A stretch of 64,000 bases of DNA from Pirellulales bacterium (GTDB lineage: Bacteria > Planctomycetota > Planctomycetia > Pirellulales > JAICIG01). Position numbers and translations under genes: made by a program. Where the stretch lies: positions 53,134 through 117,133 of the forward strand of contig DASZTS010000014.1 in assembly GCA_035547915.1 (NCBI GenBank). Reading direction: 5' to 3'. Of the stretch, positions 27,331 to 55,868 are shown piece by piece. The first letter of the stretch is position 1. Every line of letters starts with the position of its first letter. Under the pieces are notes generated by a model. It did not search any database and was not told the DNA's origin. It saw nothing but the letters and a program-made list of their open reading frames with translations.

Positions 27331-27340
27331 CGCCTACCAG

Positions 27341-37183: not shown

Positions 37184-37210
37184 CTACCTCAAGCGAAAGG
37201 AGAATCCGAA

Positions 37211-37474: not shown

Positions 37475-39061
<1,587 letters not shown>

Positions 39062-39072
<11 letters not shown>

Positions 39073-44111: not shown

Positions 44112-44190
44112 AGCAACAGATGTTGAATCAGGAATGAGGGCTTTATGAAAGAAGGAACGATCTGGGGCAACCGAGCATGAGGTACAAGTT

Positions 44191-44574: not shown

Positions 44575-44590
44575 CCAATCTTACTCGCTT

Positions 44591-46555
44591 CTATTGAGTC
44601 TCCTTCATCGTGATCGAGTGCGCATCCAGGTCAACGATGAGACTGCCCGCACCGCGCCGTTTGATTTCCCTCCAAACAGCAAATCCCTCGATGATCGCCT
44701 GTTCCCACTCGCCTGGTGTACAGCAGGATACCTCCAGATGTGACGTCATGTTTTTAATCATCCGGAGGAGTTCGGCGCTCACGCTCGCCTTTCCCTCAAG
44801 CCAGTTGTAATCCTTGGCGTAGGCGAAAATCATGGCAGAAAGCCCTTCCTCCGTCGCGATGGCCCTGCCTCCATCCTCGACTTGATCCACAATTGGATTG
44901 CTCTTCCGTTTCTTCTTCAACATCCTCCGGGTCAGTGGAGACCAGCCAAGCACGGCGGCAAAGGAAAGATGCAGCACGTCATGGAAACCATAGCCATCTT
45001 TCTCGTAGGCGTTATCCGTGAGCGGGTCGCCAAATGGCTCGCCCTTGTAGAAGACCCGGACAACTTCCTTCTCGTCCTTGTCGTGGGTGGTTGCGAAGTC
45101 GATCACAAACCGACGCGGGAATCGTTCCCCCTCTGGGAAGCCTGCATCCAGCGGCTTGCGTTTCGGCAAAGCCCCCCAGCGCTGTTCGCACTTTGCGAGG
45201 TTCCGTTCGGCGACCTCTGCCAGATCAAGGCCGAACTTCGTAGCCAGATTTGACAAATACCAGAGCAGGTCGCCGAGTTCCTCCACAAAGCGATCTTGAA
45301 ACAATGTGTGGGATTCGCCATCGCGCAAGAACTTCTTGTACTCGGTGAGCAATTCACCTGCCTCGCCGGCAAGGCCAAGGAGCGGAATCATGACGCCCTT
45401 TTGATCGGAACCTGGATTCCGGTCGGTCTTCGCCGCTCGCTGTTGATATGCACGCAGGTCCATTTTTGTTCCTCCTGAAGTTGTGATCGTTGTAGCGTCA
45501 AGGCAGTGCGCTGCTACTGCCGCATTGAGGCCCCACTTCGGCGGATACCAATACGAGATCGGTTCAGGATTCGGCCTGAATCGTTGCTTGATGCGGGTTC
45601 GCCCGTTCTGGCCACTAAATTCGGGATGCCGGACGCGGGCGTATTTATCCACCTCACAGAAGAGGTTCTGGCAGTCAATAAGCTGGAGCCTTCGCCCCCA
45701 TAAACTTTGGAATTCAAGGCCCAAGCGAGCAAACTCAGCCTCCTGCCGATCCGCCATGAACCGGATGACTTCAGCATCGTTCAATCCTGCTGTGTCATGA
45801 AAGCACTTGCGAATGCCGTCCATAGCACCAGGCCCAGGAACGACAAACTCCATCTCTGAGAAGCTCGTAAGCGGGCTATAGTTCACATCCGTTGCGTACT
45901 GATATGCCAAGAAATCGCCGATGGTCGCATATCCGCGCAACAGGTCGAATGCGCGCTGCATATTTGGCGCGTCCTTCAAGCGGCGAGGCAAGCCATCGCT
46001 CAACATTGTCTCGATTAGGACAAGGTGATTGCGATGCTTCTTCACGTGACCGAAGGATTGTCCCGACGGCATGATGTAGGCAGCGGAGTATACTTTCGCA
46101 CCGCGAGACATGGCGCGCGTGAGAATCTGGTCGTAGCGCTTGAATGAGTAGTCCTCGTAAGTGACCTGCCCAAGGGATTGCTCCAAAAGCTCCCACGTCT
46201 CAATCCGATTGAACACCTTGAAAAGGATAAGACGGAAGAACACTTCCTGTGGGTCGCTCGGCAAGTCGTCACGATAGATGACTCGCCGGATAAGGTATTG
46301 GCTAACGCGATCCGAAGCGCGGTAAGCGTTCGTGAATTTGTGGGCAAGCAATACAGCGTCATCTGTCCAGGGTGGCAGTTCTTGCGCTAGGCGTTTGAAG
46401 AATATCCGCTGCCGTTCGGCGGCGAGCCGCCAGTACGTGTCAAAGACAGCCGTCGGCTTCAGCGGTGCAATACACGGCGGTGCATATTCGCCCTGTGGCG
46501 CTTGCTTCTGGGCGAAGAGTCCCGCCCCTGACCTACGTGCTGACTTCATGGGCAA
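44591..46555 (-). CDS. Multidomain protein: N-terminal ~370-aa domain of unknown function + MazG-like NTP pyrophosphohydrolase domain + C-terminal domain
   Basis: MazG all-alpha NTP-PPase signature (MIPLLGLAGEAGELLTEYKKF...EELGDLLWYLSNLATKFGLDLAEVAERNLAKCEQRW). The N-terminal region (FKRLAQELPPWTDDAVLLAHKFTNAYRASDRVSQYL) was not recognised. Overlaps the TS-like gene by 10 nt. Confidence 0.7.
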   Translation of the reverse strand: MPMKSARRSGAGLFAQKQAPQGEYAPPCIAPLKPTAVFDTYWRLAAERQRIFFKRLAQELPPWTDDAVLLAHKFTNAYRASDRVSQYLIRRVIYRDDLPSDPQEVFFRLILFKVFNRIETWELLEQSLGQVTYEDYSFKRYDQILTRAMSRGAKVYSAAYIMPSGQSFGHVKKHRNHLVLIETMLSDGLPRRLKDAPNMQRAFDLLRGYATIGDFLAYQYATDVNYSPLTSFSEMEFVVPGPGAMDGIRKCFHDTAGLNDAEVIRFMADRQEAEFARLGLEFQSLWGRRLQLIDCQNLFCEVDKYARVRHPEFSGQNGRTRIKQRFRPNPEPISYWYPPKWGLNAAVAAHCLDATTITTSGGTKMDLRAYQQRAAKTDRNPGSDQKGVMIPLLGLAGEAGELLTEYKKFLRDGESHTLFQDRFVEELGDLLWYLSNLATKFGLDLAEVAERNLAKCEQRWGALPKRKPLDAGFPEGERFPRRFVIDFATTHDKDEKEVVRVFYKGEPFGDPLTDNAYEKDGYGFHDVLHLSFAAVLGWSPLTRRMLKKKRKSNPIVDQVEDGGRAIATEEGLSAMIFAYAKDYNWLEGKASVSAELLRMIKNMTSHLEVSCCTPGEWEQAIIEGFAVWREIKRRGAGSLIVDLDAHSITMKETQ

Positions 46556-47412
46556 CCCTTCGCGCCGACGAGCGAGTCAACGTTTTCGGTCTCGATGCAC
46601 GCCCGCGACAGTGCCATCAGCCGGTCGAGGAGAACACCACGCTTCGGGCGCATCGCAGAGTCCATTTTCTGAATGCCCGTGTAACAACAGAGCTGACTGA
46701 AACGCAGGCCAGTTTGACTGGCGACGAACTCGCCAAGCCGGCACAATCCCAGCCAGTTTCCATATGCCTTCACGAACAACTGCTGAGTTGCATAGAAGGC
46801 GTTGAGTGCCAACGTCCCGTCGGTGAAATCGGGCACGAAAGTGATGTGCTGGAGGCACGGGAATCCTTGCTGCGCCGCGCCAGTCAGGTCGCGCACTGGG
46901 TCATAGACCGCAGCTTGAAGCATTGCTCGCCTTTTTCCCTTTTGGCAGTGCTCAATGATGAACTCGATTTGATTGCCGTCGCTGCTCCATGCAGTCGCGG
47001 GCAGGTGCTTTACACGCTGCCCTGTTCTTGGATCAGTCCCGAATGCGATCAACCGGGCGAAATACATCCCGTGTCCATTCTTGGATGGCTCCATCGTCAC
47101 GTAGTCGGGGAGGTAAGTGAGATAGTCCTTGTACAGTTTGTAGCGGTCGCCATTGGCACGCCGCCACAATGCCTGCGGGAAGATCGACTTCGCCACCTTC
47201 TCGACAAGCTGATGCCCGGCTTCGTCAAGGCAAGCGTCGAGCGCGGCACGCACGTCCTTATCCTCTGTGACAACGCCATCGGCGAAGCCGGTGACACTGA
47301 CCAGACATGGCGTCAGCTCGTGACCGCGCCGTGAAAGCGCTTCGAGGAAGCACCGTGACCAGGCCATTGAGAGACTCGGATCGCTGCTCGCGTACAGACC
47401 ATTCTTACTCAT
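46546..47412 (-). CDS. Divergent thymidylate synthase-fold protein (ThyA / dNMP hydroxymethylase family)
   Basis: GFPCLQHITFVPD...GTLALNAFYATQQLFVKAYGNWLGL aligns with the TS catalytic-Cys region (LPPCH..[33 protein letters not shown]). Confidence 0.5.
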   Translation of the reverse strand: MSKNGLYASSDPSLSMAWSRCFLEALSRRGHELTPCLVSVTGFADGVVTEDKDVRAALDACLDEAGHQLVEKVAKSIFPQALWRRANGDRYKLYKDYLTYLPDYVTMEPSKNGHGMYFARLIAFGTDPRTGQRVKHLPATAWSSDGNQIEFIIEHCQKGKRRAMLQAAVYDPVRDLTGAAQQGFPCLQHITFVPDFTDGTLALNAFYATQQLFVKAYGNWLGLCRLGEFVASQTGLRFSQLCCYTGIQKMDSAMRPKRGVLLDRLMALSRACIETENVDSLVGAKGCP

Positions 47413-48286
47413 CGTCGCCTTCCTCTCGTGCCAGGTGCCGATATTGACTCCAACCGGCGTACTGGTACGGCGATATCCGAACCACCACGGCCCATTGACC
47501 AGGGGCCTCGACTCGGCTCAAGCCAGCCCTTTCAGCTCTAAACAGTCGGCCTGCGGACAGATCGCCGATCGGTGTAAGGCAAGTGCGATACTCAGGTTCG
47601 CTGCCCGCAGGCAGCAACAGAAACGTGCCGACTTCGGCGTCAACTTGCGCCAAAGCATAATGTTGGTCGGCGACGATCAATCGTTCCGCCGCATCTGAAC
47701 CGAGTAGCGCACGGCGGATGGCGGGCAGCTTCGCGCGCCGCAGCTTTTCCGCCTGCCTTGTACCGATCTCGCCCAGACCATAAGCCAAGTGGCTCACTAT
47801 GGTCTCATATCCAACGCCGAAGTGGCACGCGACCACGTAAAGCTGCTCTGGCGAGGCCGCATTTAGAGACCACTTTCGGGCCGTAAACGCGCGCCGAACC
47901 CCGAGCTTCGGCATCAGGAGAAAGCCGGCGAACGCATTGACTAAAAACTCATTCGGGTCGGTGCGTGGATTGGCATGGCTGTCCTCTTGAAGCTCGTCGA
48001 TTGTGGAGCCGTGGCCGAACACATGATGCCCAAGTTCATGTGCACAGTTAAAGACCCGACGCGGTAGTGGGCGCAATGCCGAGACTTGGATCAAGGGGCG
48101 ACTTGACCGAAGGTAGCACCCTTCCATGTTGTAATCGACGAACAGCACACGTACCTTCGGTGAAAGCCGGTCGCATAGGTCGAAGACGTTCAAGGGCGTG
48201 CCGAAGTCGATTCCTGCACGCTCGCGGACCTCCAGCGCCATCTGCAATGCGTCCTGGGCCAGTGCGGTTCGGTCCACCACGGTCAC
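47405..48286 (-). CDS. ImmA/IrrE-family metallopeptidase (DUF955)
   Basis: HEXXH motif (CAHELGHHVFGH) in the ImmA-like context, directly downstream of the XRE repressor gene. Confidence 0.8.
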   Translation of the reverse strand: MTVVDRTALAQDALQMALEVRERAGIDFGTPLNVFDLCDRLSPKVRVLFVDYNMEGCYLRSSRPLIQVSALRPLPRRVFNCAHELGHHVFGHGSTIDELQEDSHANPRTDPNEFLVNAFAGFLLMPKLGVRRAFTARKWSLNAASPEQLYVVACHFGVGYETIVSHLAYGLGEIGTRQAEKLRRAKLPAIRRALLGSDAAERLIVADQHYALAQVDAEVGTFLLLPAGSEPEYRTCLTPIGDLSAGRLFRAERAGLSRVEAPGQWAVVVRISPYQYAGWSQYRHLAREEGDDE

Positions 48287-48633
48287 TCTCCTTCACGTGG
48301 GCCGCGGAGCGCCGCCAACGCGCGCATTAGTTTGTCCAAGTCATCTGGTTTTAGTTTTTGCAATTCGCGAAACGCAAGTTGCAGTCGCTCGTCTTGGGGC
48401 TGGAGCTGATCCCCTCCCTCGCCCGATAGCCAAGCGACACTGACATCGTATATTTCCGCGAAGCGGGTCAGCTCCGTTACGGTCACGTTCCGGTTACCCG
48501 CCTCAATCTCCGAAATCGTCGGGCGGTGCAGGTCCATCATTTTTGCCACCTGCCCCTGTGACAGGCCCGCCAGCTTGCGCGCTTCCCGGAGCCTTCGGGC
48601 GATGAGCTGCTTCTTGTCCAATGTGTCGCTCAT
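48283..48633 (-). CDS. XRE-family HTH transcriptional repressor (ImmR-like)
   Basis: LREARKLAGLSQGQVAKMMDLHRPTISEIEAGNRNVTVTELTRFAEIY helix-turn-helix. Confidence 0.8.
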   Translation of the reverse strand: MSDTLDKKQLIARRLREARKLAGLSQGQVAKMMDLHRPTISEIEAGNRNVTVTELTRFAEIYDVSVAWLSGEGGDQLQPQDERLQLAFRELQKLKPDDLDKLMRALAALRGPREGE

Positions 48634-48935
48634 GTCTTGGCCTCCTGTCCAGCGTAGGCTTCAATGAAGCGGTGCGCGATCTCCTCGATGGACAGCTTGC
48701 GCTTGCCGTCTTGAGATACGTAAATGTTCTTCACCCGCGTTCCCTCTGGCAGTGGGTTGCCCAAATCCCGGGCAAGCCTGCGGACGATTTCGGGAATGAA
48801 GTCACTCTCAAAGCCCTTTAGACCATCCAACGGGCAAATTGACGGACGAATTTTGTCTTCGTCGTCGTAGCCTCCGCCGCGCTGGTAATCGCGATGGATT
48901 TCGACGAGCTTGGCGACCACATCGTCTTTTTTCAT
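48630..48935 (-). CDS. Hypothetical protein
   Basis: RBS AAAGGAGA then ATG (MKKDD...). First gene of the XRE-ImmA-TS-like-MazG operon. Confidence 0.45.
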   Translation of the reverse strand: MKKDDVVAKLVEIHRDYQRGGGYDDEDKIRPSICPLDGLKGFESDFIPEIVRRLARDLGNPLPEGTRVKNIYVSQDGKRKLSIEEIAHRFIEAYAGQEAKT

Positions 48936-49233
48936 CGGTAAATCTCCTTTATGTAAGATAATCTTACCAACCGGTAAGGAGGCTGTCAAGGAGAATTTCG
49001 TCATGCACCTTCTGCCTGACGCACGTGACCGCTTCCGCCGCCTTGCGGCACACCTTGCGATGCGAACTACTTTGCGGCCCCTGCCATTTCATGTCTGAAC
49101 GCCGCCCCAGCCAGACGTCAAGCGGGACTAAGCCCATCGAAAAAGACGTGACAATCGGGCGTGGAGTGGTTTGCTCTCAGGCAAATCGCCCAGAACCAGG
49201 GTCAAGACTGGCTGAAGACAGTGCAAGCAATCA

Positions 49234-50436
49234 TTACGCCTTCGCCGCAGCTTCAAGCTGCTTCTCGTTGGCGACGACATCGACATGCCACACTCCCGCC
49301 TCCGCAAGGAACTTAGCCGCACGCTTCGCGAGGTTCAGCAGTCGTGTGTCGTGTGTGAGAAAGATGTTCATCGTGCTCAACATTGCGGCATGCTCGCAGT
49401 CGAACGACAGCCCACCCGTCGGAATCTCCCCCTTGGCCAGGCACATTTCCAACTCTCCCAACACTACCTCGTCAGGCACGCGGGCGTATAAAAGGCACGT
49501 GCGCGACAGATTGCGGAATAGTATTTGGAGCGCCTTGGCCAGGAGCTGAGCGTCGGACGCGCACTGCGCCGGGGCCGCCTCCGCGAGAAACTTCGGCGGC
49601 GCCATCGCCTTGTTTCCGTGGATGACACCCCAGTAATCCCGGATCGCAGCCGTGTCAAACGTCATGAGCAGGAACGAATTGCGGTGGAACACGCTGGCCA
49701 TACACTGCCCTAATTCCGCCGCGCTATACGCCTCCGCAACCTGCTTTTTGTTCTTTTGAAGGCGTCCACGCGTGGCGTCGTCCATCGGCGTTGCCTGCGC
49801 CACATTCTGGTCGATCTCGTCGCGCAGGTCCTGGAGTGGCCGTGCATCGAATTCGGCCCAAATGTCGTCGGTCGTTACCAGAAATTCTTTGGCGCATTTG
49901 ACCATCTCGTCCACGAACGCCGCCGGGGCACGGGCGAATCGCGAGTGAAGCAATCGGCTGGTGATCTTCGACCGTAAAAGATCATCAATCGCCTCTGGGC
50001 GGTTGAGCGTCCGGAGCGCCGCAAGCATGGCGAGCAGGCCCGCATATACCTGTTGGCTGGTAGTCTGCGCGAACTCGAAATAATCCAAGCACCGGATGGC
50101 CGCCGGGGCCGCAGCGTCAATGACCTGGAGCAAATTCCGCACAAGCAGAAACTCGAATCCGGGTGCCATCCGGCGGCAATTGGTCAGTTCGACAAGTGCC
50201 TGGGCGAGGCGCACGCGAAGGTCCAGCTTCGGCGTGTCCCTCAAGCAACTCTGCTCATCGAAATCAGCGCATAGGAAAATCTCCAGCACATTGACCGGGC
50301 TGGTCCACACTTCGACCGCTCCTTCAGCCGCCAGATTGGCGATCATGCCGCCGAGTTTCGTCTCACTCCACGGTGTCGCAGCATCCTCGCACATGGTAGA
50401 AAGGCAACACTGGTCGATGTATAGCTTCTTTGGCAT
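49234..50436 (-). CDS. Hypothetical protein
   Basis: 400-aa ORF with no recognised motif. Last gene of the element before the tRNA array resumes. Confidence 0.5.
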   Translation of the reverse strand: MPKKLYIDQCCLSTMCEDAATPWSETKLGGMIANLAAEGAVEVWTSPVNVLEIFLCADFDEQSCLRDTPKLDLRVRLAQALVELTNCRRMAPGFEFLLVRNLLQVIDAAAPAAIRCLDYFEFAQTTSQQVYAGLLAMLAALRTLNRPEAIDDLLRSKITSRLLHSRFARAPAAFVDEMVKCAKEFLVTTDDIWAEFDARPLQDLRDEIDQNVAQATPMDDATRGRLQKNKKQVAEAYSAAELGQCMASVFHRNSFLLMTFDTAAIRDYWGVIHGNKAMAPPKFLAEAAPAQCASDAQLLAKALQILFRNLSRTCLLYARVPDEVVLGELEMCLAKGEIPTGGLSFDCEHAAMLSTMNIFLTHDTRLLNLAKRAAKFLAEAGVWHVDVVANEKQLEAAAKA

Positions 50437-50690
50437 TCAGATCAGGCTCCGCATTTACGCATCCGCGTGTCGCACCGGCGCGCAGTTCCTCTCCGCCTCC
50501 CCAAGTTACGACGCTGGTACGTGGCCAAGGTTCGCGCCTACCTAGCTAGGGTAAATTCGCTCATTTCTGCAAGCGGTCTCCGAAGCCGGGTATCGCCGCA
50601 AGTGCTTGCCCTGCAAGCGGTAGCTGCGAACAAAGTGATTTGACGCCGGCGATAAAAAGTTCAATAGCCGTCTTGTCGCCCCGACTCGAT

Positions 50691-50765
50691 TGCGGTGGGA
50701 CCCGTGTTGGTACGGGTAGGCGGCTGTTAACCGCCCGGACGCAGGTTCGATTCCTGCCACCGCAG
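50691..50765 (+). tRNA. tRNA-Asn(GTT)
   Basis: U1:A72 acceptor TGCGGTG/CACCGCA, G73, anticodon arm GGCGG-CTGTTAA-CCGCC, T-arm GCAGG-TTCGATT-CCTGC. Confidence 0.8.
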
Positions 50766-50805
50766 CTTTTTTAAGCCTAATCTGGTTTTGTCGGTTGCTC
50801 TAAAT

Positions 50806-50877
50806 GTGCCCTTGGCCGAGCGGCAAAGGCTCCAGCCTTCCAAGCTGGCGAGGCGAGTTCGACTCTCGCAGGGCACT
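50806..50877 (+). tRNA. tRNA-Gly(TCC)
   Basis: Acceptor GTGCCCT/AGGGCAC, U73, anticodon arm CCAGC-CTTCCAA-GCTGG, T-arm GCGAG-TTCGACT-CTCGC. Confidence 0.8.
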
Positions 50878-50891
50878 CTGCATCGGATTGA

Positions 50892-50962
50892 TCGGGGATC
50901 GGCTAACGGTAGGCTGCCTGGCTTTGACCCAGGTGATGGAGGTTCAAGTCCTTCTCCCCGAA
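50892..50962 (+). tRNA. tRNA-Gln(TTG)
   Basis: U1:A72 acceptor TCGGGGA/TCCCCGA, anticodon arm CCTGG-CTTTGAC-CCAGG, T-arm GGAGG-TTCAAGT-CCTTC. Short D-arm. Confidence 0.65.
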
Positions 50963-50998
50963 CTTTGCTCGCGATGGTGTGTCTCAAGTAATACCCGA

Positions 50999-51072
50999 TC
51001 CGGGGCAGTCGCTGCTGGTAGCGATGCCTGGCTCTGAACCAGGAGGCGTTGGTTCGATTCCAACCCCCGGAA
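50999..51072 (+). tRNA. tRNA-Gln(CTG)
   Basis: Acceptor TCCGGGG/CCCCGGA, D-stem GTCGC/GCGAT, anticodon arm CCTGG-CTCTGAA-CCAGG, T-arm GTTGG-TTCGATT-CCAAC. Confidence 0.75.
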
Positions 51073-51121
51073 TTTTTATGGTCGAAAGAGATCTGCAACA
51101 AGTCGTGAACAACAGATAGAT

Positions 51122-51209
51122 GCGGAGGTCATCCGGCTGGATGAGGAACTTGTCTCGAAAACAAGTAGCGGCCCTGCCGCTTGTGAGTTCGAGTCTCACG
51201 GCCTCCGCC
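51122..51209 (+). tRNA. tRNA-Ser(CGA) (class II)
   Basis: Acceptor GCGGAGG/CCTCCGC, anticodon arm CTTGT-CTCGAAA-ACAAG, long variable arm GCGGCCCTGCCGC, T-arm GTGAG-TTCGAGT-CTCAC. Confidence 0.75.
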
Positions 51210-51322
51210 TTGAGTAAGAGCGGCTGATAGAAACCAAAAGCCCGAGCGCCATGGCAAAAATTGGCTGTGAAACGCCAATTTTTCGGCAGCTCGATCCAAT
51301 TTTGTCGGCTGCAATAAAACAC

Positions 51323-51395
51323 GGTCCCGTGGCCTAGCAGCGAAGGCAGCACCCTTACAAGGTGACGATCGACAGTGCGAGTCTGTCCGGGACTA
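51323..51395 (+). tRNA. tRNA-Val(TAC)
   Basis: Acceptor GGTCCCG/CGGGACT, anticodon arm GCACC-CTTACAA-GGTGA, T-arm GACAG-TGCGAGT-CTGTC (G55 in place of U). Confidence 0.65.
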
Positions 51396-51410
51396 CTTCA
51401 AACGCGAATC

Positions 51411-51484
51411 GCCTAGGTACGCCAACAGGCAGAGCGGCTTGGCTTAAACCCAAGTGTTTGCGGGTTCAACTCCCGCCCTGGGCA
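51411..51484 (+). tRNA. Class-I (short variable arm) tRNA with UAA anticodon (Leu anticodon, atypical)
   Basis: Acceptor GCCTAGG/CCTGGGC, anticodon arm CTTGG-CTTAAAC-CCAAG, T-arm GCGGG-TTCAACT-CCCGC. 74 nt with only a 5-nt variable loop. Confidence 0.55.
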
Positions 51485-51546
51485 CTCGTGAAGACAGCTT
51501 AGAGCAACCGGCAAGATCGGACGCCGGTCTTGTCAGCCGCTCTTAC

Positions 51547-51619
51547 GGCTCGGTAGGCAACGGCAGACCACCTTGGCTTAGAACCAGGGATGCTGTGGGT
51601 TCGAGTCCCACCTGAGCCA
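51547..51619 (+). tRNA. Class-I tRNA with UAG anticodon (Leu anticodon, atypical)
   Basis: Acceptor GGCTCGG/CTGAGCC, anticodon arm CTTGG-CTTAGAA-CCAGG, T-arm GTGGG-TTCGAGT-CCCAC. 6-nt variable loop. Confidence 0.55.
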
Positions 51620-51624
51620 TTCGC

Positions 51625-51742
51625 ATAAGAACGGCTGACGAAACCTGGAAGCCGGAGCGCGGCGGGCGAAAAATCGGTCGTGAAACGCCGAGTTTTTGAA
51701 ACATCGAGTCGGTTTCGTCAGTTGCTCGAAGAATTTCGTCCT
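51625..51742. repeat. Palindromic ~110-bp spacer element (TAGAGCGGCTGACAAAACCGG ... CCGGTTTTGTCGGTTGCTCTA family)
   Basis: Inverted terminal arms and internal hairpin ATCGGCCGTGAAACGCCGAT. Further copies at 52014-52108, 52352-52473, 52553-52660 and 55491-55600. Partial copies at 51497-51545, 52905-52950, 53290-53350 and 56451-56512. Confidence 0.75.
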
Positions 51743-51747
51743 CGTGG

Positions 51748-51822
51748 AGCAGCCTGGAGTGCTCGCCACCCTGTCAAGGTGGAGGTCGTGGGTTCAAATC
51801 CCATCGGGGACGCCTTTGAAAG
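51748..51822 (+). tRNA. tRNA-Asp(GTC)
   Basis: Acceptor GTCCTCG/CGGGGAC, G73, D-stem GAGC/GCTC, anticodon arm CCACC-CTGTCAA-GGTGG, T-arm GTGGG-TTCAAAT-CCCAT. Confidence 0.8.
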
Positions 51823-51835
51823 CACGGCGCGGTAC

Positions 51836-51913
51836 GCAAACGGGAAAAGCGGCCAAGCTCAAACCTTGGTGATTCTTTGTCGGTTCGACTCCGACCCGCG
51901 CCACTCGAACACG
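51836..51913 (+). tRNA. tRNA with CAA anticodon (Leu anticodon), 9-nt variable loop, atypical
   Basis: Acceptor GGCGCGG/CCGCGCC, anticodon arm CCAAG-CTCAAAC-CTTGG, T-arm GTCGG-TTCGACT-CCGAC. 78 nt, without the long class-II variable arm. Confidence 0.55.
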
Positions 51914-51931
51914 AACAACATGCGTCGGTTG

Positions 51932-52013
51932 GGCATTGGCAAGCTCCAGTGGCCGTAACCCACCCGCCTTCGGGCTCTGCAGGTTCGACTCCTGCCCGGC
52001 GCACTAAGAGCGG
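51932..52013 (+). tRNA. tRNA-Tyr(GTA) (class II), C33
   Basis: Acceptor GCGTCGG/CCGGCGC, A73, anticodon loop CCGTAAC, variable arm CCGCCTTCGGGCT, T-arm GCAGG-TTCGACT-CCTGC. Confidence 0.55.
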
Positions 52014-52117
52014 CTGACAAAATCGGGAAGCCGGAGTGCCGCGGGCGAAAAAATCGGCCGTGAAACGCCGGTTTTTGTGGCTCGATCCGGTTCTGTCGGT
52101 TGCTCTAGATACAACTT

Positions 52118-52188
52118 GGCCCGTTCGTCTATCGGTAGGACACGAGCCCCTCAAGCTCGGAAGGCGGGTTCGATTCCCGTGCGGGTCA
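52118..52188 (+). tRNA. tRNA-Glu(CTC), C33
   Basis: Acceptor GGCCCGT/GCGGGTC, D-arm of Glu type (TCGTCTATCGGTAGGAC), anticodon arm CGAGC-CCCTCAA-GCTCG, T-arm GCGGG-TTCGATT-CCCGT. Confidence 0.6.
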
Positions 52189-52192
52189 CTTC

Positions 52193-52276
52193 GGCCAAGT
52201 GGTGCAATTGGAAGACACACGACGCTCAGAACGTCGGCCCCTCGCGGGCGTGGGAGTTCGAGTCTCCCCTTGGTCA
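52193..52276 (+). tRNA. tRNA-Leu(CAG) (canonical class II)
   Basis: Acceptor GGCCAAG/CTTGGTC, anticodon arm CGACG-CTCAGAA-CGTCG, long variable arm GCCCCTCGCGGGCGT, T-arm GGGAG-TTCGAGT-CTCCC. Confidence 0.8.
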
Positions 52277-52282
52277 TTTCGA

Positions 52283-52351
52283 CGCAGGTGGGCCAGTGTC
52301 CAGCGAAGCCTCATAAGCTTCGCGCGCCGGGTGCGACTCCCGGACCTGCAA
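52283..52351 (+). tRNA. tRNA-Met(CAT), short (69 nt), initiator-like C1.A72 mismatch
   Basis: Anticodon arm (GC)GAAGC-CTCATAA-GCTTC(GC), T-arm CCGGG-TGCGACT-CCCGG, acceptor CGCAGGT/ACCTGCA with unpaired C1.A72 and A73. Reduced D-arm. Confidence 0.5.
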
Positions 52352-52476
52352 CTTTGGAGTTGCTCTTAGAGCGGCTGACAAAACCCGGAAGCCGGAGCGC
52401 CCGTGGGCGAAAAATCGGCCGTGAAACGCCGATTTTTGTGGAGCGAAGTCCGGTTTTGTCGGTTGCTCTTAGATGC

Positions 52477-52552
52477 GGCCGGGTACGCAAACCGGAAAAG
52501 CGGCGAGGTCGAGAGCCTCGTGACTCTGTGGGTTCGACCCCCACCTCGGCTA
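52477..52552 (+). tRNA. tRNA with GAG anticodon (Leu anticodon), 7-nt variable loop, C33, atypical
   Basis: Paralog of the CAA tRNA (same TA-CGC-AAACCGGAAAA-GCG D-arm). Anticodon arm CGAGG-TCGAGAG-CCTCG, T-arm GTGGG-TTCGACC-CCCAC. Confidence 0.5.
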
Positions 52553-52660
52553 CTAAGAGCGGTTGACAAAAGCTAGACGCCGGCGCGCCGCGGGCGAGAA
52601 ATCGGCCGCGAAACGCCGATCTTTGTGGAGCGCGATCTGGTTTTGTCGATTGCTCTAAAC

Positions 52661-52732
52661 GATCTCGTGGTCCAACGGCGACGACGCTTGGCTGACGTCC
52701 GGGAAACGATGGTTCAACTCCATCCGGGATCA
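52661..52732 (+). tRNA. tRNA-Val(GAC)
   Basis: Acceptor GATCTCG/CGGGATC, anticodon arm CTTGG-CTGACGT-CCGGG (two G.U pairs), T-arm GATGG-TTCAACT-CCATC. Confidence 0.55.
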
Positions 52733-52737
52733 CTCAT

Positions 52738-52808
52738 GGTCTGTAGGTGTTTCGGCAGCACACCGCCGTGGTAAGGCGGAAGACCCGGTTCAATTCCGGG
52801 ACGGACCT
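52738..52808 (+). tRNA. tRNA-Thr(GGT)
   Basis: Acceptor GGTCTGT/ACGGACC, anticodon arm CCGCC-GTGGTAA-GGCGG, T-arm CCCGG-TTCAATT-CCGGG. Confidence 0.75.
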
Positions 52809-52829
52809 CTGACACGACAAACACAACAC

Positions 52830-52901
52830 GGGCCTGCATGTCCCCGGAGGCGACTGACCCTTGCAAGGTCGGTGTGATGGGTTCGACCCCCATCAGGTCC
52901 A
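52830..52901 (+). tRNA. tRNA-Ala(TGC)
   Basis: G3.U70 identity pair, acceptor GGGCCTG/CAGGTCC, anticodon arm TGACC-CTTGCAA-GGTCG, T-arm ATGGG-TTCGACC-CCCAT. Confidence 0.8.
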
Positions 52902-52955
52902 CTTGTTAGAGGAACCGACAGAACCGGATCGAGCTTTCCTCGGATCGACTGATAT

Positions 52956-53026
52956 GGGCTGCTGGTCCAACGGGACGACGCCGGCTCCGCAGGCCGGAAA
53001 TCGGAGTTCGACTCTCCGGCGGTCCA
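52956..53026 (+). tRNA. tRNA-Ala(CGC), C33
   Basis: G3.U70 present. Anticodon arm CCGGC-TCCGCAG-GCCGG, T-arm CGGAG-TTCGACT-CTCCG. Confidence 0.6.
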
Positions 53027-53036
53027 CTGACAACGA

Positions 53037-53107
53037 GGGCTCATCGTCAAAAGGGAAGACGCCAGTCCGGCAGGCTGGAGATCTGGGTTCGATTCCCAGT
53101 GGGTCCA
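53037..53107 (+). tRNA. tRNA-Ala(GGC), C33
   Basis: G3.U70 present. Anticodon arm CCAGT-CCGGCAG-GCTGG, T-arm CTGGG-TTCGATT-CCCAG. Confidence 0.6.
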
Positions 53108-53124
53108 CTCAACCGAGGAGAAAG

Positions 53125-53211
53125 GGAAGGTAGGCGGATACGGCTTGCCGCGCCGCTTTGCTAAAGCGGTTCCCGGGACACGGGATGAGGGTTCGACTCC
53201 CTTGCCTTCCG
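53125..53211 (+). tRNA. tRNA-Ser(GCT) (class II)
   Basis: Acceptor GGAAGGT/GCCTTCC, G73, anticodon arm CCGCT-TTGCTAA-AGCGG, variable arm TCCCG-GGACA-CGGGA, T-arm GAGGG-TTCGACT-CCCTT. Confidence 0.75.
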
Positions 53212-53217
53212 CTCGTT

Positions 53218-53289
53218 GCCCCGATGGTGAAACGGACATCATCCCCTGCTTCTAACTGGGTGTTCCGGGTTCGAGTCCTGGTCGGGGTA
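53218..53289 (+). tRNA. tRNA-Arg(TCT)
   Basis: Acceptor GCCCCGA/TCGGGGT, anticodon arm CCCTG-CTTCTAA-CTGGG (one U.U mismatch), T-arm CCGGG-TTCGAGT-CCTGG. Confidence 0.5.
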
Positions 53290-53366
53290 CTGATAAGAGC
53301 AACCGAAAAGACCGGATTGCGCTCTCGGCTTCCGGTTCTTGCCGGCCACTGTAAGGAGGACCGTTT

Positions 53367-54170
53367 ATGACAACCGACATCGAGAGGCAATTCGCCAAGA
53401 TGGGTGCGCGGATCAAGCTGCACGAGCGCGAGCAGATCGGCAGCATGGCCGGCGTCTCGATCGACATCGGTCGCGACCGGTTGGGCGAGTTTTATGACGT
53501 CTCTGTGGACAACCGCGACGACAAGAACTTGTCGGTGCTCGACGTGCGACCCCGCATCCGGCACTTGCTGTTGTCGTACCATCGGCCGGCGGTGAACACC
53601 AACAGCCGGTTCCTGTGCGGTCACGACGAGCGGCATTGGTTCGTCGCGGCGATCCCCGAAACATCGGCGTCGTCGTCGGTGCGGACCGCCATGGAGTCGC
53701 TCAAGCCGATGGCCGTTCGCCGCCTGCAGGAGAGACTTCGCGTCAAGCCACAGAAGCGGAACCGCCGGCGCAACGCAGCGTTCGTCCGACAGGGCGAGTG
53801 GTTCTTCATCCGTATTGCTCCATCCGTCCGCATCGACGAGTGGATGGTTCTGCGGAACGAGCCATTGCGGCGTGGCAACGGCAAGCCGCATTTCGTCGAG
53901 GAGCTGATTCGCGTCGGCGGAGAAGCGGTCTATGTCAGCAACCAATACCCGCAGGGTCTCACGTTCCGCGAGTATCAGAAGCTGATCGGCCGCAAGCCGG
54001 AGCTACGGCACTTGCAATGGGTTGTGCAGCGGCGCAACCCGCAGGTTTTTGTACGGGGTAGGGTTCGCCATGCCGATCACAAGACGATTTTCTTGGACGG
54101 CTGGCACCAGGTACTGATGAACACCGAGACGCAGTCGCTCGCGATGCGTCATGTGGCGTTCATCGACTGA
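53367..54170 (+). CDS. Hypothetical protein (inside tRNA array)
   Basis: RBS AAGGAGG then ATG. 267-aa basic protein with no recognised motif. Confidence 0.5.
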   Translation: MTTDIERQFAKMGARIKLHEREQIGSMAGVSIDIGRDRLGEFYDVSVDNRDDKNLSVLDVRPRIRHLLLSYHRPAVNTNSRFLCGHDERHWFVAAIPETSASSSVRTAMESLKPMAVRRLQERLRVKPQKRNRRRNAAFVRQGEWFFIRIAPSVRIDEWMVLRNEPLRRGNGKPHFVEELIRVGGEAVYVSNQYPQGLTFREYQKLIGRKPELRHLQWVVQRRNPQVFVRGRVRHADHKTIFLDGWHQVLMNTETQSLAMRHVAFID

Positions 54171-54202
54171 GAGTCGGACGATAAAGAGAGCCGGACGATA
54201 AA

Positions 54203-54356
54203 TTCCCTCTCCCTCCGGGAGAGGGTTAGGGTGAGGGCCGATCGCGCGCTCCTGTGTTGTCGACTCTCTTCGGACGTGGCTGAGTTTTCGCTGAACAGGG
54301 GACCGACCCCATTAGTACTCTCAGCCGCCCTCACCCAACCCTCTCCCCGAGGAGAG
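54203..54356. repeat. ~160-bp palindromic element (CCCTCTCCC...GGGAGAGGG family), copy 2
   Basis: Near-identical to 12053-12212. Partial copies at 55112-55170 and 55320-55345. Confidence 0.8.
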
Positions 54357-54414
54357 GACGGAAGACTGCGGAAGTTATTCGATCGCGGGTTGGCGGAACC
54401 GTCGACCCGCATAC

Positions 54415-54490
54415 GGTGTCTGTGGTGTAGCGGTATTCTGCACGCCCGGCTGTGAACCGGATGGTATGGGTTCGACTCCCGTCAGACACC
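54415..54490 (+). tRNA. tRNA-His(GTG) with encoded G-1
   Basis: G-1 pairs with C73. Acceptor GTGTCTG/CAGACAC, anticodon arm CCCGG-CTGTGAA-CCGGA, T-arm ATGGG-TTCGACT-CCCGT. Followed by a CTTTTTTTG tract. Confidence 0.8.
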
Positions 54491-54517
54491 CTTTTTTTGA
54501 CAAGGAGGAATTTGGTC

Positions 54518-55111
54518 GTGGTTGCAAAGATGTTGAACAGACCGGCGCTGGTGCTCAACCGTAACTGGCAGCCGGTGAACGTCGCTACCGTCGCTCGCGC
54601 GCTGGTCATGCTCTTCAACGAGGCGGCCCGCGTCGTCGACCCGCACGACTACCAGCTCTACACCTGGACTGACTGGTCGCGGCTGGCTCCGCGCGACGGC
54701 GAGCCGTTCATCCGGGCGGTGAGCCTGCGGCTGCGCGTGCCGGAGGTGATCGTGCTGGCGGGTTACGATCGGCTGCCCGAGGCGGCCGTCTCGTTCAGCC
54801 GGCGCAACATCTTCAAGCGTGACCACTACACGTGCCAGTATTGCGGCGTGCAACCCGGCCTCGCGGAGTTGTCGATCGACCACGTCGTCCCGCGGTCGCA
54901 GGGCGGCACCTCGACCTGGGACAACTGCGTGCTGGCATGCGTGGACTGCAACAAGACGAAGGCCGACCGCACGCCCGCCGAGGCCGGCATGAAACTGCGC
55001 AAGCAGCCTTGCCGGCCACAATGGAAGCCACTCTACGCCGCGCACAACGTGCGCATCGAGAGCTGGTCGAAGTTCATCAGCGAAGCCTACTGGAGTGTCG
55101 AACTCCGCTAG
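54518..55111 (+). CDS. HNH endonuclease
   Basis: C-terminal HNH motif (DHVVPRSQGGTSTWDNCVLACVDCNKTKADRTP) and Cys-rich CQYCG. RBS AAGGAGG, then a GTG at 54518 or an ATG at 54530. Confidence 0.75.
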   Translation: MVAKMLNRPALVLNRNWQPVNVATVARALVMLFNEAARVVDPHDYQLYTWTDWSRLAPRDGEPFIRAVSLRLRVPEVIVLAGYDRLPEAAVSFSRRNIFKRDHYTCQYCGVQPGLAELSIDHVVPRSQGGTSTWDNCVLACVDCNKTKADRTPAEAGMKLRKQPCRPQWKPLYAAHNVRIESWSKFISEAYWSVELR

Positions 55112-55245
55112 ATCCCCTCTCCCTCTGGGAGAGGGTTAGGGTGAGGGCGGCTTGCATTACAAGCCGCGTCCAACCTGCCTCTCGCTGACAATAGTTTCTT
55201 CGTTCGTTTCCCGATCCAAGCTGGGGCAGCTTGGATCGGCCTTAT

Positions 55246-55315
55246 AGGATCGTGCTCCTGGGAGAGCACGCGGTCTCCAAAGCCGCTTCACGGGGTTCGA
55301 CTCCTCGCGATCCTG
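55246..55315 (+). tRNA. tRNA-Trp(CCA)
   Basis: A1:U72 acceptor AGGATCG/CGATCCT, G73, D-stem GCTC/GAGC, anticodon arm GCGGT-CTCCAAA-GCCGC, T-arm CGGGG-TTCGACT-CCTCG. Confidence 0.8.
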
Positions 55316-55414
55316 CTCGATCCCCTCTCCCTCCGGGAGAGGGCAAACAGGTCGATACCCGTGCCCAGTGACAACTACATAACACGCGAGTCATCGGCCT
55401 TACATGAACAACCT

Positions 55415-55486
55415 GTCCTGATGGTGTAACGGAACGCATTCGACCCTCCGAAGGTCGTGGTCCTGGTTCGAGTCCAGGTCGGGACA
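55415..55486 (+). tRNA. tRNA-Arg(CCG)
   Basis: Acceptor GTCCTGA/TCGGGAC, anticodon arm CGACC-CTCCGAA-GGTCG, T-arm CCTGG-TTCGAGT-CCAGG. T-tract follows. Confidence 0.8.
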
Positions 55487-55613
55487 TTTTTTAGATTACA
55501 GAGCAACCGACAAAACCGGATGCAGCTCCGACAAATCGGCGTTTCACGGCCGATTTTTCGCCCACCGCGCTCCTGCTTCCGAGTCTTGTCAGCCGCTCTG
55601 GCGATCCAACCTT

Positions 55614-55684
55614 GCCCTGCGAGTGTGATGGAAGCACGGCAGTCTTCGGAACTGCAAGACGGGGTCCGATTCCTCGGCGGGGTA
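55614..55684 (+). tRNA. tRNA-Arg(TCG)
   Basis: Acceptor GCCCTGC/GCGGGGT, anticodon arm GCAGT-CTTCGGA-ACTGC, T-arm CGGGG-TCCGATT-CCTCG. Confidence 0.7.
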
Positions 55685-55703
55685 CTGCTGCTCGAAAAAA
55701 CTT

Positions 55704-55777
55704 GTCCTCGGAGTGTGCCGGATTTCGCACGCGAGCCCGCGAAGCTCGTAGACCAGGTTCGATTCCTGGCGAGGACG
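55704..55777 (+). tRNA. tRNA-Arg(GCG), C33
   Basis: Perfect acceptor GTCCTCG/CGAGGAC, anticodon arm CGAGC-CCGCGAA-GCTCG, T-arm CCAGG-TTCGATT-CCTGG. Confidence 0.55.
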
Positions 55778-55788
55778 CTTGAACGATT

Positions 55789-55860
55789 GACGCTGGAGCC
55801 AGACGGCACGGCAACCGCCTGCAAAGCGGTTCGAAGCGGGTTCGACTCCCGCCGGCGTCT
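55789..55860 (+). tRNA. tRNA-Cys(GCA)
   Basis: Acceptor GACGCTG/CGGCGTC, U73, anticodon arm ACCGC-CTGCAAA-GCGGT, T-arm GCGGG-TTCGACT-CCCGC. Confidence 0.8.
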
Positions 55861-55868
55861 CTTGAAGA

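Follow-up and report, generated by a model that had tools for sequence, protein, structure and literature searches.

The tRNA array and its context

The window, by which we mean the whole 64,000-nt stretch of DNA analysed here, contains 38 tRNA genes called by ARAGORN (Table 1). Taking an L-array to be at least 20 co-oriented, non-periodic tRNA genes at a density of at least 2 per kb, we find such an array in two parts, with 28 genes in 5.17 kb and 10 in 1.2 kb. All of these genes lie on the + strand without periodic spacing, they represent 20 isotypes, and their density exceeds 5 genes per kb. The main part contains an HNH endonuclease open reading frame, and homing endonucleases adjoining L-arrays have been described (PMC8421152; PMC5966550).

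Table 1. Positions of the array, its leucine tRNA genes and neighbouring features in the window
Feature	Position	Strand	Source
Detached first L-array part, 10 tRNA genes, Phe to Pro(CGG)	11097..12322	+	ARAGORN
Conjugative-element-like insertion, ~38 kb, splitting the array	12303..50690	.	Gene content; synteny
Main L-array part, 28 tRNA genes including five Leu genes	50691..55861	+	ARAGORN
tRNA-Leu(UAA), class-I-shaped, D loop CAACAGGCAGA	51411..51484 (ARAGORN call to 51485)	+	ARAGORN; Rfam
tRNA-Leu(UAG), class-I-shaped, Leu-type D loop CAACGGCAGA	51547..51619	+	ARAGORN; Rfam
tRNA-Leu(CAA), class-I-shaped, D loop AAACGGGAAAA	51826..51903 (ARAGORN call to 51904)	+	ARAGORN; Rfam
tRNA-Leu(CAG), canonical class II, 4-bp variable-arm hairpin	52193..52276	+	ARAGORN; Rfam
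tRNA-Leu(GAG), class-I-shaped	52477..52552 (ARAGORN call to 52553)	+	ARAGORN; Rfam, relaxed filters
HNH endonuclease ORF within the array	54452..55111	+	Pfam HNH 1e-14; PHROG HNH endonuclease 4e-34

The gene order of the main part is conserved in other array loci (L002, L006, L051, L056, L067, L122, L123 and others). In homologous arrays Asn(GUU) directly follows Pro(CGG), that is, they are uninterrupted at the point where the window array is split. The intervening segment encodes a serine recombinase, a TrwC relaxase, a type I restriction-modification system, a 5-hmdU kinase/MazG protein, a split T4 coupling protein and a tyrosine integrase; a search of its ends revealed no att-like direct repeats longer than 10 nt. 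We regard this insertion as context and not as part of the tRNA feature.

Syntenic arrays occur in more than 100 genomes, several of which carry two, and also on viral or phage-like contigs. Stieleria magnilauensis, Limnoglobus roseus, Rubripirellula obstinata and Planctopirus hydrillae are among the cultured planctomycetes that bear them. Pfam searches of the open reading frames on two array-bearing viral contigs gave no clear phage hallmark genes, and megablast of the window array against phage and plasmid records returned no relatives. The window array also has a palindromic spacer motif, absent from all other loci; it is lineage-specific and stands apart from the leucine genes discussed below.

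Four tRNA genes with leucine anticodons lack the long variable arm

A long extra arm is treated in textbooks as obligatory for tRNA-Leu. The initial annotation of this locus, made from the sequence alone, described four class-I-shaped tRNAs with Leu anticodons beside one class II tRNA-Leu(CAG), and ARAGORN, Rfam, RNAalifold and minimum free energy (MFE) folding all agree with that description. Counted to the discriminator, the four genes are 74 (UAA), 73 (UAG), 78 (CAA) and 76 nt (GAG) long. ARAGORN draws each with a 6-bp anticodon stem followed by a variable region of 4-8 nt, which in standard numbering (positions 44-48) becomes 5 nt for UAA, 5-6 nt for UAG, 9 nt for CAA and 7 nt for GAG, matching the loops of 5-9 nt and genes of 73-78 nt originally noted. 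A long arm was sought with ARAGORN, RNAalifold and MFE folds and found in none of the four; the same MFE folding recovers the variable-arm hairpin of Leu(CAG), and for Leu(CAA) it returns an exact cloverleaf. All four short genes have 7-nt anticodon loops, sense Leu anticodons, 7/5 geometry and A73.

Covariance-model folding had been put forward as a way of revealing other anticodons or long arms in these genes. Neither emerged, and Rfam keeps the anticodons. Against RF00005, whose gathering score is 29 bits, UAA scores 53.2, CAA 51.1 and UAG 41.8 bits, compared with 45.3 bits for the class II CAG gene. Leu(GAG) was missed in the whole-window Rfam run through a filter effect rather than a failure of the model, as it reaches 38.1 bits with its anticodon unchanged once the speed filters are relaxed.

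The short genes differ in detail. Leu(UAA) has a 3-bp D stem and an 11-nt D loop. Leu(UAG), of which an identical gene is present in array locus L002, has a weak D stem of 2-3 bp, a Leu-type loop and the variable region ATGCU. U33 is near-universal and C33 unusual in elongator tRNAs; Leu(GAG) has C33 in place of U33, within the anticodon loop UCGAGAG. Leu(CAA) and Leu(GAG), which the initial annotation called paralogs, have 95% of the D arm in common, and the five anticodons do cover the six Leu codons under standard wobble rules. The class II Leu(CAG) is built like E. coli leuV/P/Q.

The initial annotation's premise of a long arm in every bacterial tRNA-Leu was too strong, since the LeuRS of Streptomyces coelicolor leucylates that organism's type I tRNALeu(CAA) (Fan et al. 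2019, NAR 47:6369, PMC6614811). That tRNA, the only documented bacterial exception, is described as rare (PMC6614811).

Leucine identity elements are retained

In E. coli, the determinants for LeuRS are A73 and the D/T core, and neither the anticodon nor the long arm is among them (Giege and Eriani 2023, PMC9976931); variants of E. coli tRNALeu without the arm stay active (PMC9976931; PMC6614811). Across 247 distinct short Leu sequences we find A73 in 98.4%, U8 in 100%, U48 in 99.6%, A58 in 100% and U54U55C56 in 98.4%, together with the D-loop motif A14A15..G18G19.A20a in 85.8%. The bases of the tertiary core (U8-A14, A15-U48, G18G19/A20a and U54-A58) are thus in place and would be expected to pair in the folded molecule. 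The E. coli leuV/P/Q architecture, a 3-bp D stem with an 11-nt D loop and a 6-bp anticodon stem, is likewise found in 201 of 311 Leu-anticodon genes in the arrays, as against at most 2% for every other isotype.

Model R1, a covariance model trained on class II Leu genes, gives the class II CAG gene 92.7 bits and ranks the four short genes second to fifth among the 38 tRNAs of the window: UAA (54.4 bits, rank 2), CAA (53.3), GAG (51.9) and UAG (46.7, rank 5). The best non-Leu gene scores 44.4 bits, so the margin for Leu(UAG) is small. The long variable arm, the hallmark of class II, is missing from these genes, and the other Leu features that we tested are present.

These results bear on the proposal that the genes encode tRNAs of altered identity, in which a tRNA body charged by a synthetase other than LeuRS would bear a Leu anticodon, as in mistranslating or recoding tRNAs of the tRNAProX type or allo-tRNA chimeras. 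A class I shape is normally foreign to Leu, and two tRNAs of the Anabaena operon run aberrantly in acid gels, although these are Phe and Ile and not Leu. The body of the short genes, however, combines a Leu-specific D arm with A73, and the Leu model scores it above all other isotypes. Pair 3:70 is C-G or U-A throughout, and the alanine identity element G3:U70 occurs in 0 of 247 sequences. Features of Ser tRNAs or allo-tRNAs are also missing, with no long arm and standard 7/5 geometry in place of 8/4 or 9/3, and other synthetases depend on anticodon bases that the short Leu genes do not have (established identity rules; PMC9976931). Nor does any tRNA in the window have a stop-codon anticodon or an 8-nt anticodon loop. 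We consider a change of identity very improbable.

Short-armed Leu genes recur across arrays

The D-arm motif GGTACGCNAACNGGNANAGCGGC has 137 matches in public genomes and viral contigs. All 114 matches that fall in intact tRNA genes, drawn from more than 100 genomes, mostly of Planctomycetota, are short and carry a Leu anticodon (69 CAA, 22 GAG, 18 UAA, 4 CAG and 1 AAG), and all 114 sit in syntenic L-arrays. Among the loci retrieved in this way, through the D arm of the short genes and hence not as a measure of frequency among all arrays, the ratio of short to long genes is 88/1 for CAA, 61/2 for GAG, 59/0 for UAA, 56/0 for UAG and 16/57 for CAG. Array Ser tRNAs stay class II at 83-92 nt, bar single calls of 77 and 98 nt, as do array Tyr tRNAs at 80-90 nt.

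Stem pairing in this family is maintained through compensatory change. In 80 distinct sequences, 96.8% of cells are paired compared with 73.3% in shuffles and 30-45% in slid controls, percentages that are somewhat inflated because ARAGORN calls only well-paired genes. The covariation score is 0.673 against 0.208 in shuffles, a value reached by 0 of 500 shuffles, and both partners vary in 19 of 21 pairs. Among the short CAG genes, some are plainly class II CAG genes that have shed the arm, and others have a UAG- or CAA-type body in which the anticodon has been switched; all such switches stay within Leu. C33 also recurs in the arrays, in 76% of Leu GAG, 87% of Pro GGG, 67% of Ala CGC and 60% of Glu CUC genes.

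To judge from these sequences, the short-armed Leu genes are a conserved family of putatively transferable arrays in more than 100 bacterial genomes and some phages. We found no paper describing an array-wide short-armed Leu family. The accessible text of the L-array papers (PMC4758250, PMC8421152, PMC5966550) is silent on the missing Leu arm. Blastn searches of E. coli genomes with the class II Leu(CAG) gene and of plasmids with a consensus short Leu gave no matches, likely because short queries were run against very large databases.

The short genes might instead be non-translational relics or decoys, such as pseudogenes, processing spacers or sponges for tRNA-binding proteins. Transcription of L-arrays is often poor and pseudogenes occur among their members (PMC8421152), and degenerate, truncated and insert-bearing copies of the short Leu body occur in related arrays. 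Relics would not be expected to show purifying selection on all four stems with compensatory changes, or to retain the tertiary bases, a Leu anticodon and A73 in every one of 114 intact genes from several planctomycete families, cyanobacteria and a phage. A decoy, for its part, would have no need of complementary anticodons covering the Leu boxes. We therefore hold this explanation to be highly unlikely.

Of the three readings offered by the initial annotation, only that of non-standard Leu tRNAs is supported: the LeuRS identity elements are kept, compensatory changes occur across more than 100 arrays, and the anticodons are always Leu. Suppressor, recoding or otherwise altered identity finds no stop anticodon, 8-nt loop, G3:U70 or SerRS-type long arm to point to, and the anticodon switches remain in Leu boxes. 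Nothing argues for a regulatory-RNA role.

Discussion

We propose that the four genes probably encode working leucine acceptors whose long variable arm has been lost, and that they are the Leu(UAA), Leu(UAG), Leu(CAA) and Leu(GAG) members of a horizontally spread L-array. The array would provide a second, near-complete complement of tRNAs, serving all 20 amino acids. The short Leu genes would be transcribed with it and then cut by RNase P and 3′ processing, with CCA presumably added by the CCA-adding enzyme, since it is not encoded in these genes. Charging would fall to the single LeuRS of the host, a bacterial enzyme expected to read A73 and the D-loop/T-loop core, which the short genes keep, and neither the anticodon nor the variable arm. 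CUG, the most used codon, would be served by the class II Leu(CAG), which together with the four short genes would allow all six Leu codons to be decoded. The short-armed tRNAs are thus presumed to be charged with leucine in the host and used on ribosomes.

Since LeuRS does not use the arm as a determinant, tRNA-Leu would tolerate its loss. E. coli LeuRS did not charge the S. coelicolor type I tRNALeu(CAA), for which a special LeuRS domain is needed (PMC6614811), and such tolerance is therefore not universal. In Aquifex, arm removal lowers affinity.

What favoured the loss is a separate matter. It may have been adaptive, producing "hardened" copies that escape tRNA-targeting nucleases or toxins, whether these recognise a class II shape or cleave within the variable loop or anticodon loop; such tRNAs would sustain translation for the mobile element, or for a host under attack, and this is compatible with leucine identity. 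Several observations point in this direction. The arm has been lost repeatedly, as the short CAG genes derive from at least three different bodies, and the array Leu GAG, Pro GGG, Ala CGC and Glu CUC genes conserve C33 in place of the near-universal U33. Loop mutations reportedly let phage tRNAs escape anticodon nucleases (PMC10264068), mycobacterial arrays have been called putative anti-defence systems (PMC12803027), and VapC52 is reported to cleave tRNA within its variable loop or anticodon loop (PMC13273310). In Anabaena, translational stress induces the array together with the toxins VapC, MazF and RelE, and a lytic phage tRNA cluster carries the same Leu design. The eLife paper on phage tRNA loop mutations discusses neither Leu arms nor position 33.

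Against adaptation, we identified no nuclease specific for bacterial class II tRNA-Leu, and Ser and Tyr keep their arms, as do the Leu(CAG) genes of most arrays, so that relaxed constraint is a simpler explanation. We accordingly regard an adaptive origin as rather unlikely. The more specific idea that arm loss in four of five Leu isoacceptors and conserved C33 in other isoacceptors together form a counter-defence design is doubtful; if it were true, L-arrays and phage clusters would be a disguised, nuclease-resistant tRNA set, read by host synthetases and missed by immune and toxin RNases. We also considered bacterial Schlafen nucleases as class II-targeting agents, like human SLFN11, and rejected them, as the relevant paper reports no type II preference.

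If the short genes are, as we favour, working leucine tRNAs, a large natural family would break the long-arm rule, with four anticodons and a distribution across mobile arrays of planctomycetes, cyanobacteria and mycobacteriophages. It would offer many natural, evolutionarily tested "minimal" LeuRS substrates, and a naturally occurring test of which class II arms can be dispensed with (that of Leu, but not those of Ser and Tyr) whose outcome matches the known behaviour of LeuRS and SerRS. It may also give a handle on the purpose of L-arrays, be it to back up translation or to counter defence systems. A practical consequence for annotation is that these genes, although most likely ordinary Leu tRNAs, may be marked as inconsistent by isotype-specific tRNA models.

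Comparison with known systems

The window array resembles described L-arrays (Tran et al. 2016, PMC4758250; Santamaria-Gomez et al. 2021, PMC8421152; Morgado and Vicente 2018, PMC5966550) in being co-oriented and dense with an HNH gene inside, and differs from them in being split by a 38 kb conjugative-element-like insertion. In the trn operon of Anabaena PCC 7120, all four Leu genes are class-I-shaped with a Leu-type D arm, and the T stem of the GAG gene is broken; on pCC7120delta, we found no tRNAs in the first 50 kb and an array in the last 5 kb. Twenty-three of the 26 operon tRNAs are aminoacylated in vivo, and operon tRNAs are found in polysomes (PMC8421152). Since the four Leu genes are all short, at least one short Leu must be charged in Anabaena, the acid gels showing charging as such and not amino acid identity or individual Leu genes (PMC8421152). 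The tRNA cluster of mycobacteriophage Wildcat has the same short Leu design.

The S. coelicolor type I tRNALeu(CAA) likewise combines a Leu anticodon with a short variable loop in a bacterium. The same cell also contains class II tRNALeu, and its single LeuRS leucylates the type I species; U8-A14 is important, and the variable loop must have about 5 nt, nucleotide 48 among them. This tRNA is, however, a single, apparently essential housekeeping isoacceptor of one actinomycete, whereas the array family has four isoacceptors, carried on a putatively mobile array. The variable loop of the Streptomyces tRNA, A44C45A46G47C48, ends in C48, whereas the array family has U48 in 99.6% and other loop sequences. 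A73 is not an identity element for the Streptomyces LeuRS.

Animal mitochondrial tRNALeu is also class I and has a short variable region beside a Leu anticodon; its determinants are A73 and A14 (PMC9976931). It is, however, organellar, reduced, often floppy and served by its own LeuRS, whereas the array genes have the full bacterial D/T-loop core including G18G19. Engineered armless E. coli tRNALeu variants (Larkin et al. 2002; Asahara et al. 1993, 1998; reviewed in PMC9976931) show that E. coli LeuRS needs no more than A73 and the D/T tertiary core and can do without the arm. Those variants are laboratory constructs assayed in vitro; the array Leu genes are natural and retain exactly that set of features.

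The window carries four short leucine tRNA genes in a split tRNA array

In the window, ARAGORN predicts 38 tRNA genes. They lie on the forward strand without exception, in two clusters, and five carry leucine anticodons (Table). The UAA, UAG, CAA and GAG genes extend 73-78 nt to the discriminator, with variable regions of 5-9 nt in the ARAGORN structures. Minimum-free-energy (MFE) folding gave cloverleaf-like structures without an extra arm for these four, hereafter short Leu genes, and an arm hairpin for Leu(CAG). All five pass the gathering score of the Rfam tRNA model (29 bits), Leu(GAG) being scored after its speed filters were relaxed, with the anticodon register unchanged. ARAGORN, Rfam and MFE folding thus bear out the initial annotation of four class-I-shaped tRNAs beside a class II Leu(CAG); the different anticodons or long variable arms that it had named as possible counter-evidence appeared in neither the Rfam register for GAG nor the ARAGORN structures and MFE folds. 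The CAA and GAG genes, proposed to be paralogs with a common D arm, are indeed 95% identical there, and the closest paralogs of each short Leu gene within the window are the other short Leu genes. None of these genes encodes the 3′-terminal CCA, which would therefore have to be added after transcription.

The surrounding array covers all 20 amino acids at more than 5 genes/kb and includes an HNH endonuclease ORF, and on these grounds fits the published category of "tRNA array unit" or "L-array" (PMC4758250, PMC8421152). The two clusters are one array, since Asn(GUU) comes immediately after Pro(CGG) in homologous arrays and the two lie 38.4 kb apart in the window. Between them sits a conjugative-element-like insertion of ~38 kb. 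Its serine recombinase adjoins tRNA-Pro, and its T4 coupling protein is split over two ORFs. It also carries a ParB-like gene and genes for tyrosine integrase, TrwC relaxase, a methylase/helicase of 1949 aa, type I restriction-modification, 5-hmdU DNA kinase/MazG and M78 peptidase. A search of its ends for att-like direct repeats gave none longer than 10 nt. The flanks encode planctomycete-type proteins, including PSD/PSCyt domains, DUF1552 and WD40, which identifies the host as a planctomycete, and the nearest arrays among the matches listed, 81-86% identical, are in Pirellulales MAGs.

Several other features of the array were apparent. A tRNA-Ile with a UAU anticodon, rare among bacteria, is conserved in place across most homologous arrays. 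A 50-nt direct repeat (86% identity between copies), containing the palindrome CCCTCTCCC-N3-GGGAGAGGG, lies on either side of a segment with tRNA-His and the HNH endonuclease ORF, and may mark the borders of a homing-endonuclease cassette. Several spacers between tRNA genes share a palindromic element of ~110 nt, in which outer inverted arms (AGAGCGGCTGACAAAAC...GTTTTGTCGGTTGCTCT) enclose an A-run, hairpin and T-run. The folding energy of one copy is -56.7 kcal/mol (z = -4.6). The window has 9 occurrences of the motif where 0.12 would be expected, and the 129 array loci L001-L129 have none. We interpret it tentatively as a lineage-specific MITE/REP-like element or as a module for processing or termination.

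Table. Features of the window and of homologous array loci (L numbers, from public genomes and viral contigs). tRNA genes of the window were called by ARAGORN; bit scores are from the Rfam tRNA model.
Feature	Position	Strand	Description
tRNA cluster	11097-12322	+	10 genes
tRNA-Ile(UAU)	11627-11699	+	
Insertion	12303-50690		between tRNA-Pro(CGG) and tRNA-Asn(GUU)
T4 coupling protein ORFs	15106-15972, 15969-17240		
tRNA cluster	50691-55861	+	28 genes
Leu(UAA)	51411-51484	+	short variable region; 53.2 bits
Leu(UAG)	51547-51619	+	short variable region; 41.8 bits
Leu(CAA)	51826-51903	+	short variable region; 51.1 bits
Tyr(GUA)	51922-52004	+	C33
Glu(CUC)	52118-52189	+	C33
Leu(CAG)	52193-52276	+	normal variable-arm hairpin; 45.3 bits
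Leu(GAG)	52477-52552	+	short variable region; 38.1 bits, filters relaxed; C33
Ala(CGC)	52956-53027	+	C33
Ala(GGC)	53037-53108	+	C33
50-nt direct repeat	54196-54245, 55106-55155		
Spacer element, full copies	51210-51322, 51620-51737, 52005-52117, 52353-52476, 52554-52660		
Spacer element, shorter versions	50761-50805, 51486-51546, 55584-55599		
Short Leu(CAG) genes	L016 812; L072; L080; L051; others		
UAA-type body	L066 2977-3069		long arm kept; 8-nt anticodon loop
Insert-bearing short Leu bodies	L041 ~6940; L099 2632-2725; L102 3243-3335; L110 7262-7355		
Two-array genomes	L008/L089; L063/L105; L088/L118; L052/L091; L017/L107; L068/L104		first three: Stieleria magnilauensis, Planctomycetaceae SH139, Rubripirellula
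Anabaena trn operon	L131, pCC7120delta record 50.0-52.2 kb		Leu UAA, UAG, CAA, GAG

Short leucine tRNA genes form a family in planctomycete arrays

Scanning GTDB (one genome per species) with the D arm of the short genes alone (GGTACGCNAACNGGNANAGCGGC) returned at least 120 loci, and 7 viral contigs carry the motif. Of 137 matches listed, 114 fall in intact tRNA genes, every one of which (114/114) is at most 81 nt long with a leucine anticodon (69 CAA, 22 GAG, 18 UAA, 4 CAG and 1 AAG). The other listed matches are either chance occurrences in coding sequence (~10) or short Leu bodies that are truncated, edge-cut or carry inserts. Nearly all loci listed belong to Planctomycetota (Pirellulales, Planctomycetaceae, Gemmataceae, Isosphaeraceae and Thermoguttaceae), including the cultured genera Stieleria, Rubripirellula, Rhodopirellula, Novipirellula, Limnoglobus, Zavarzinella and Planctopirus; a few come from other phyla, for example from Plesiocystis pacifica and a Lachnospiraceae MAG. 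Across these loci, arrays hold 10-38 tRNAs per 8 kb and keep the gene order ...Val Leu(UAA) Leu(UAG) Asp Leu(CAA) Tyr Glu Leu(CAG) Met Leu(GAG) Val..., with two arrays per genome in several planctomycetes.

Short and long forms number 88/1 for CAA, 61/2 for GAG, 59/0 for UAA, 56/0 for UAG and 16/57 for CAG, counts that describe arrays containing short Leu genes, as the loci were fetched through a motif of the short genes. Most UAG genes do not carry this motif, and just 4 of the genes that do are CAG, so the counts for UAG and CAG are in large part independent observations. Four short genes with one long CAG are therefore the norm, and the short Leu genes are a family rather than an accident. 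In the same arrays, Ser tRNAs are class II (83-92 nt, bar single 77- and 98-nt calls), as are Tyr tRNAs (80-90 nt).

Short leucine tRNAs retain leucine determinants and paired stems

E. coli LeuRS recognizes A73, A14, the A15-U48 pair, D-loop G18G19 with A20a, and U54-A58, but neither the anticodon nor the long arm; armless E. coli tRNALeu variants are still substrates, whereas arm size is the major element for tRNASer (PMC9976931, PMC6614811). The short Leu genes retain these leucine determinants within a conserved structure: 247 distinct sequences from the loci listed have A73 (98.4%), U8 (100%), U48 (99.6%), the D-loop motif (85.8%), U54U55C56 (98.4%) and A58 (100%), and none has the alanine determinant G3:U70. 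Their 3-bp D stem, 11-nt D loop (NAANNGGNANA) and contiguous 6-bp anticodon stem recur in E. coli leuV/P/Q, folded for comparison. Among arrays listed, this architecture is found in 201/311 Leu-anticodon genes versus at most 2% of each other isotype.

As a substitute for isotype-specific models, we trained a Leu covariance model on E. coli leuV together with 33 class II Leu genes of the arrays. Leu(CAG) scored 92.7 bits and the four short genes 54.4, 53.3, 51.9 and 46.7, above all 33 non-Leu tRNAs of the window (top, Arg(CCG), 44.4; class II Ser, 38.0, and Tyr, 35.4). The mismatch between anticodon and isotype model raised initially as a sign of altered identity was thus not seen with this model; its ranking and the Leu-confined architecture indicate that body and anticodon agree. 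Three synthetases, LeuRS, SerRS and AlaRS, do not read the anticodon. Since SerRS requires the long arm and AlaRS requires G3:U70, LeuRS is by elimination the plausible charging enzyme.

Alignment of 80 distinct short Leu sequences indicates that the fold is under selection. Without a tRNA prior, RNAalifold recovered the acceptor stem, 6-bp anticodon stem and T stem but no variable arm, with compensatory changes in 16/18 pairs. With the D stem included, 96.8% of cells are paired versus 73.3% in column shuffles, percentages that ARAGORN's calling criteria raise somewhat; pairing falls to 30-45% when partners are slid. The covariation score of 0.673 (0.208 shuffled) was reached by 0/500 shuffles, and 19/21 pairs changed on both sides. 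Despite the ARAGORN inflation, pair-type variety per position matches that of functional tRNAs.

With structure, conservation and retained determinants shown, we consider it likely that the four genes are leucine tRNAs of an accessory, horizontally spread set, which the host LeuRS would charge. Against this, tolerance of arm loss varies among LeuRS enzymes, Leu(GAG) has C33 and Leu(UAG) a weak D stem.

Recurrent variation and the origin of the short form

U33 is near-universal in tRNAs, and several genes of the window carry C33 instead (Table). Across arrays listed, C33 is found in 87% of Pro(GGG), 76% of Leu(GAG), 67% of Ala(CGC), 60% of Glu(CUC), 50% of Val(CAC) and 48% of Thr(CGU) genes, and in 0-3% of many other isoacceptors.

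In some short CAG genes, 4-5 nt replace the arm of what is otherwise the class II CAG gene; others have a UAG-type or CAA-type body with the anticodon switched to CAG. These differing bodies, together with a long-armed UAA-type body, indicate that arm loss and anticodon switching recur in the family, the switches being confined to Leu boxes. In other short Leu bodies, a ~25-nt hairpin-containing insert replaces the 7-nt anticodon loop, and ARAGORN wrongly reports these copies as Pro, Gly or Arg genes of 93-94 nt. The inserts may be intron-like or small mobile elements, or the genes may be disabled.

The simplest reading is that the short form arose through relaxed constraint, Leu alone among class II families being able to lose its arm yet keep its synthetase. 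CUG, served by class II Leu(CAG), is used more than any other Leu codon of the window (42% in the host flanks and 38% in the insertion). This is consistent with published evidence that class II substrates have a higher catalytic efficiency (PMC6614811), though as a correlation only. The recurrence of arm loss, the retention of C33 in selected isoacceptors, the phage connection of the design, the link of Anabaena array induction to stress and toxins, and published proposals of phage and array tRNAs as counter-defence devices would also suit an altered shape that helps escape tRNA-targeting nucleases. We regard such escape as unlikely: a study of bacterial Schlafen shows no such specificity, and we know of no nuclease that has it.

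Comparison with studied systems

L-arrays, one bacterial type I tRNALeu and single family genes annotated as tRNA-Leu in public records are already known; we found no mention of the missing arm of array Leu tRNAs in the array, phage-tRNA and LeuRS literature searched. The family should be of some interest to specialists in tRNAs and their synthetases, and lends itself to direct testing.

Two genes of mycobacteriophage Wildcat, annotated plainly as tRNA-Leu, have the anticodons UAG (74 nt) and CAA (73 nt). They share their D loop, 6-bp anticodon stem and A73 with the array genes, and their variable region is GUUU. The one biochemically characterised bacterial precedent, Streptomyces coelicolor type I tRNALeu(CAA), is leucylated by its own LeuRS but not by that of E. 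coli; unlike the array family, it has the variable loop ACAGC with C48. The L-array with experimental study is the trn operon of Nostoc/Anabaena PCC 7120 plasmid delta, whose four Leu genes are all class-I-shaped with a Leu-type D arm. Published work found 23 of the operon's 26 tRNAs charged in vivo (PMC8421152). The GAG copy, whose T stem is broken, probably accounts for one of the three pseudogenes reported. Since at most three operon tRNAs are uncharged, at least one of the four short Leu tRNAs is charged in Anabaena, and probably three are.
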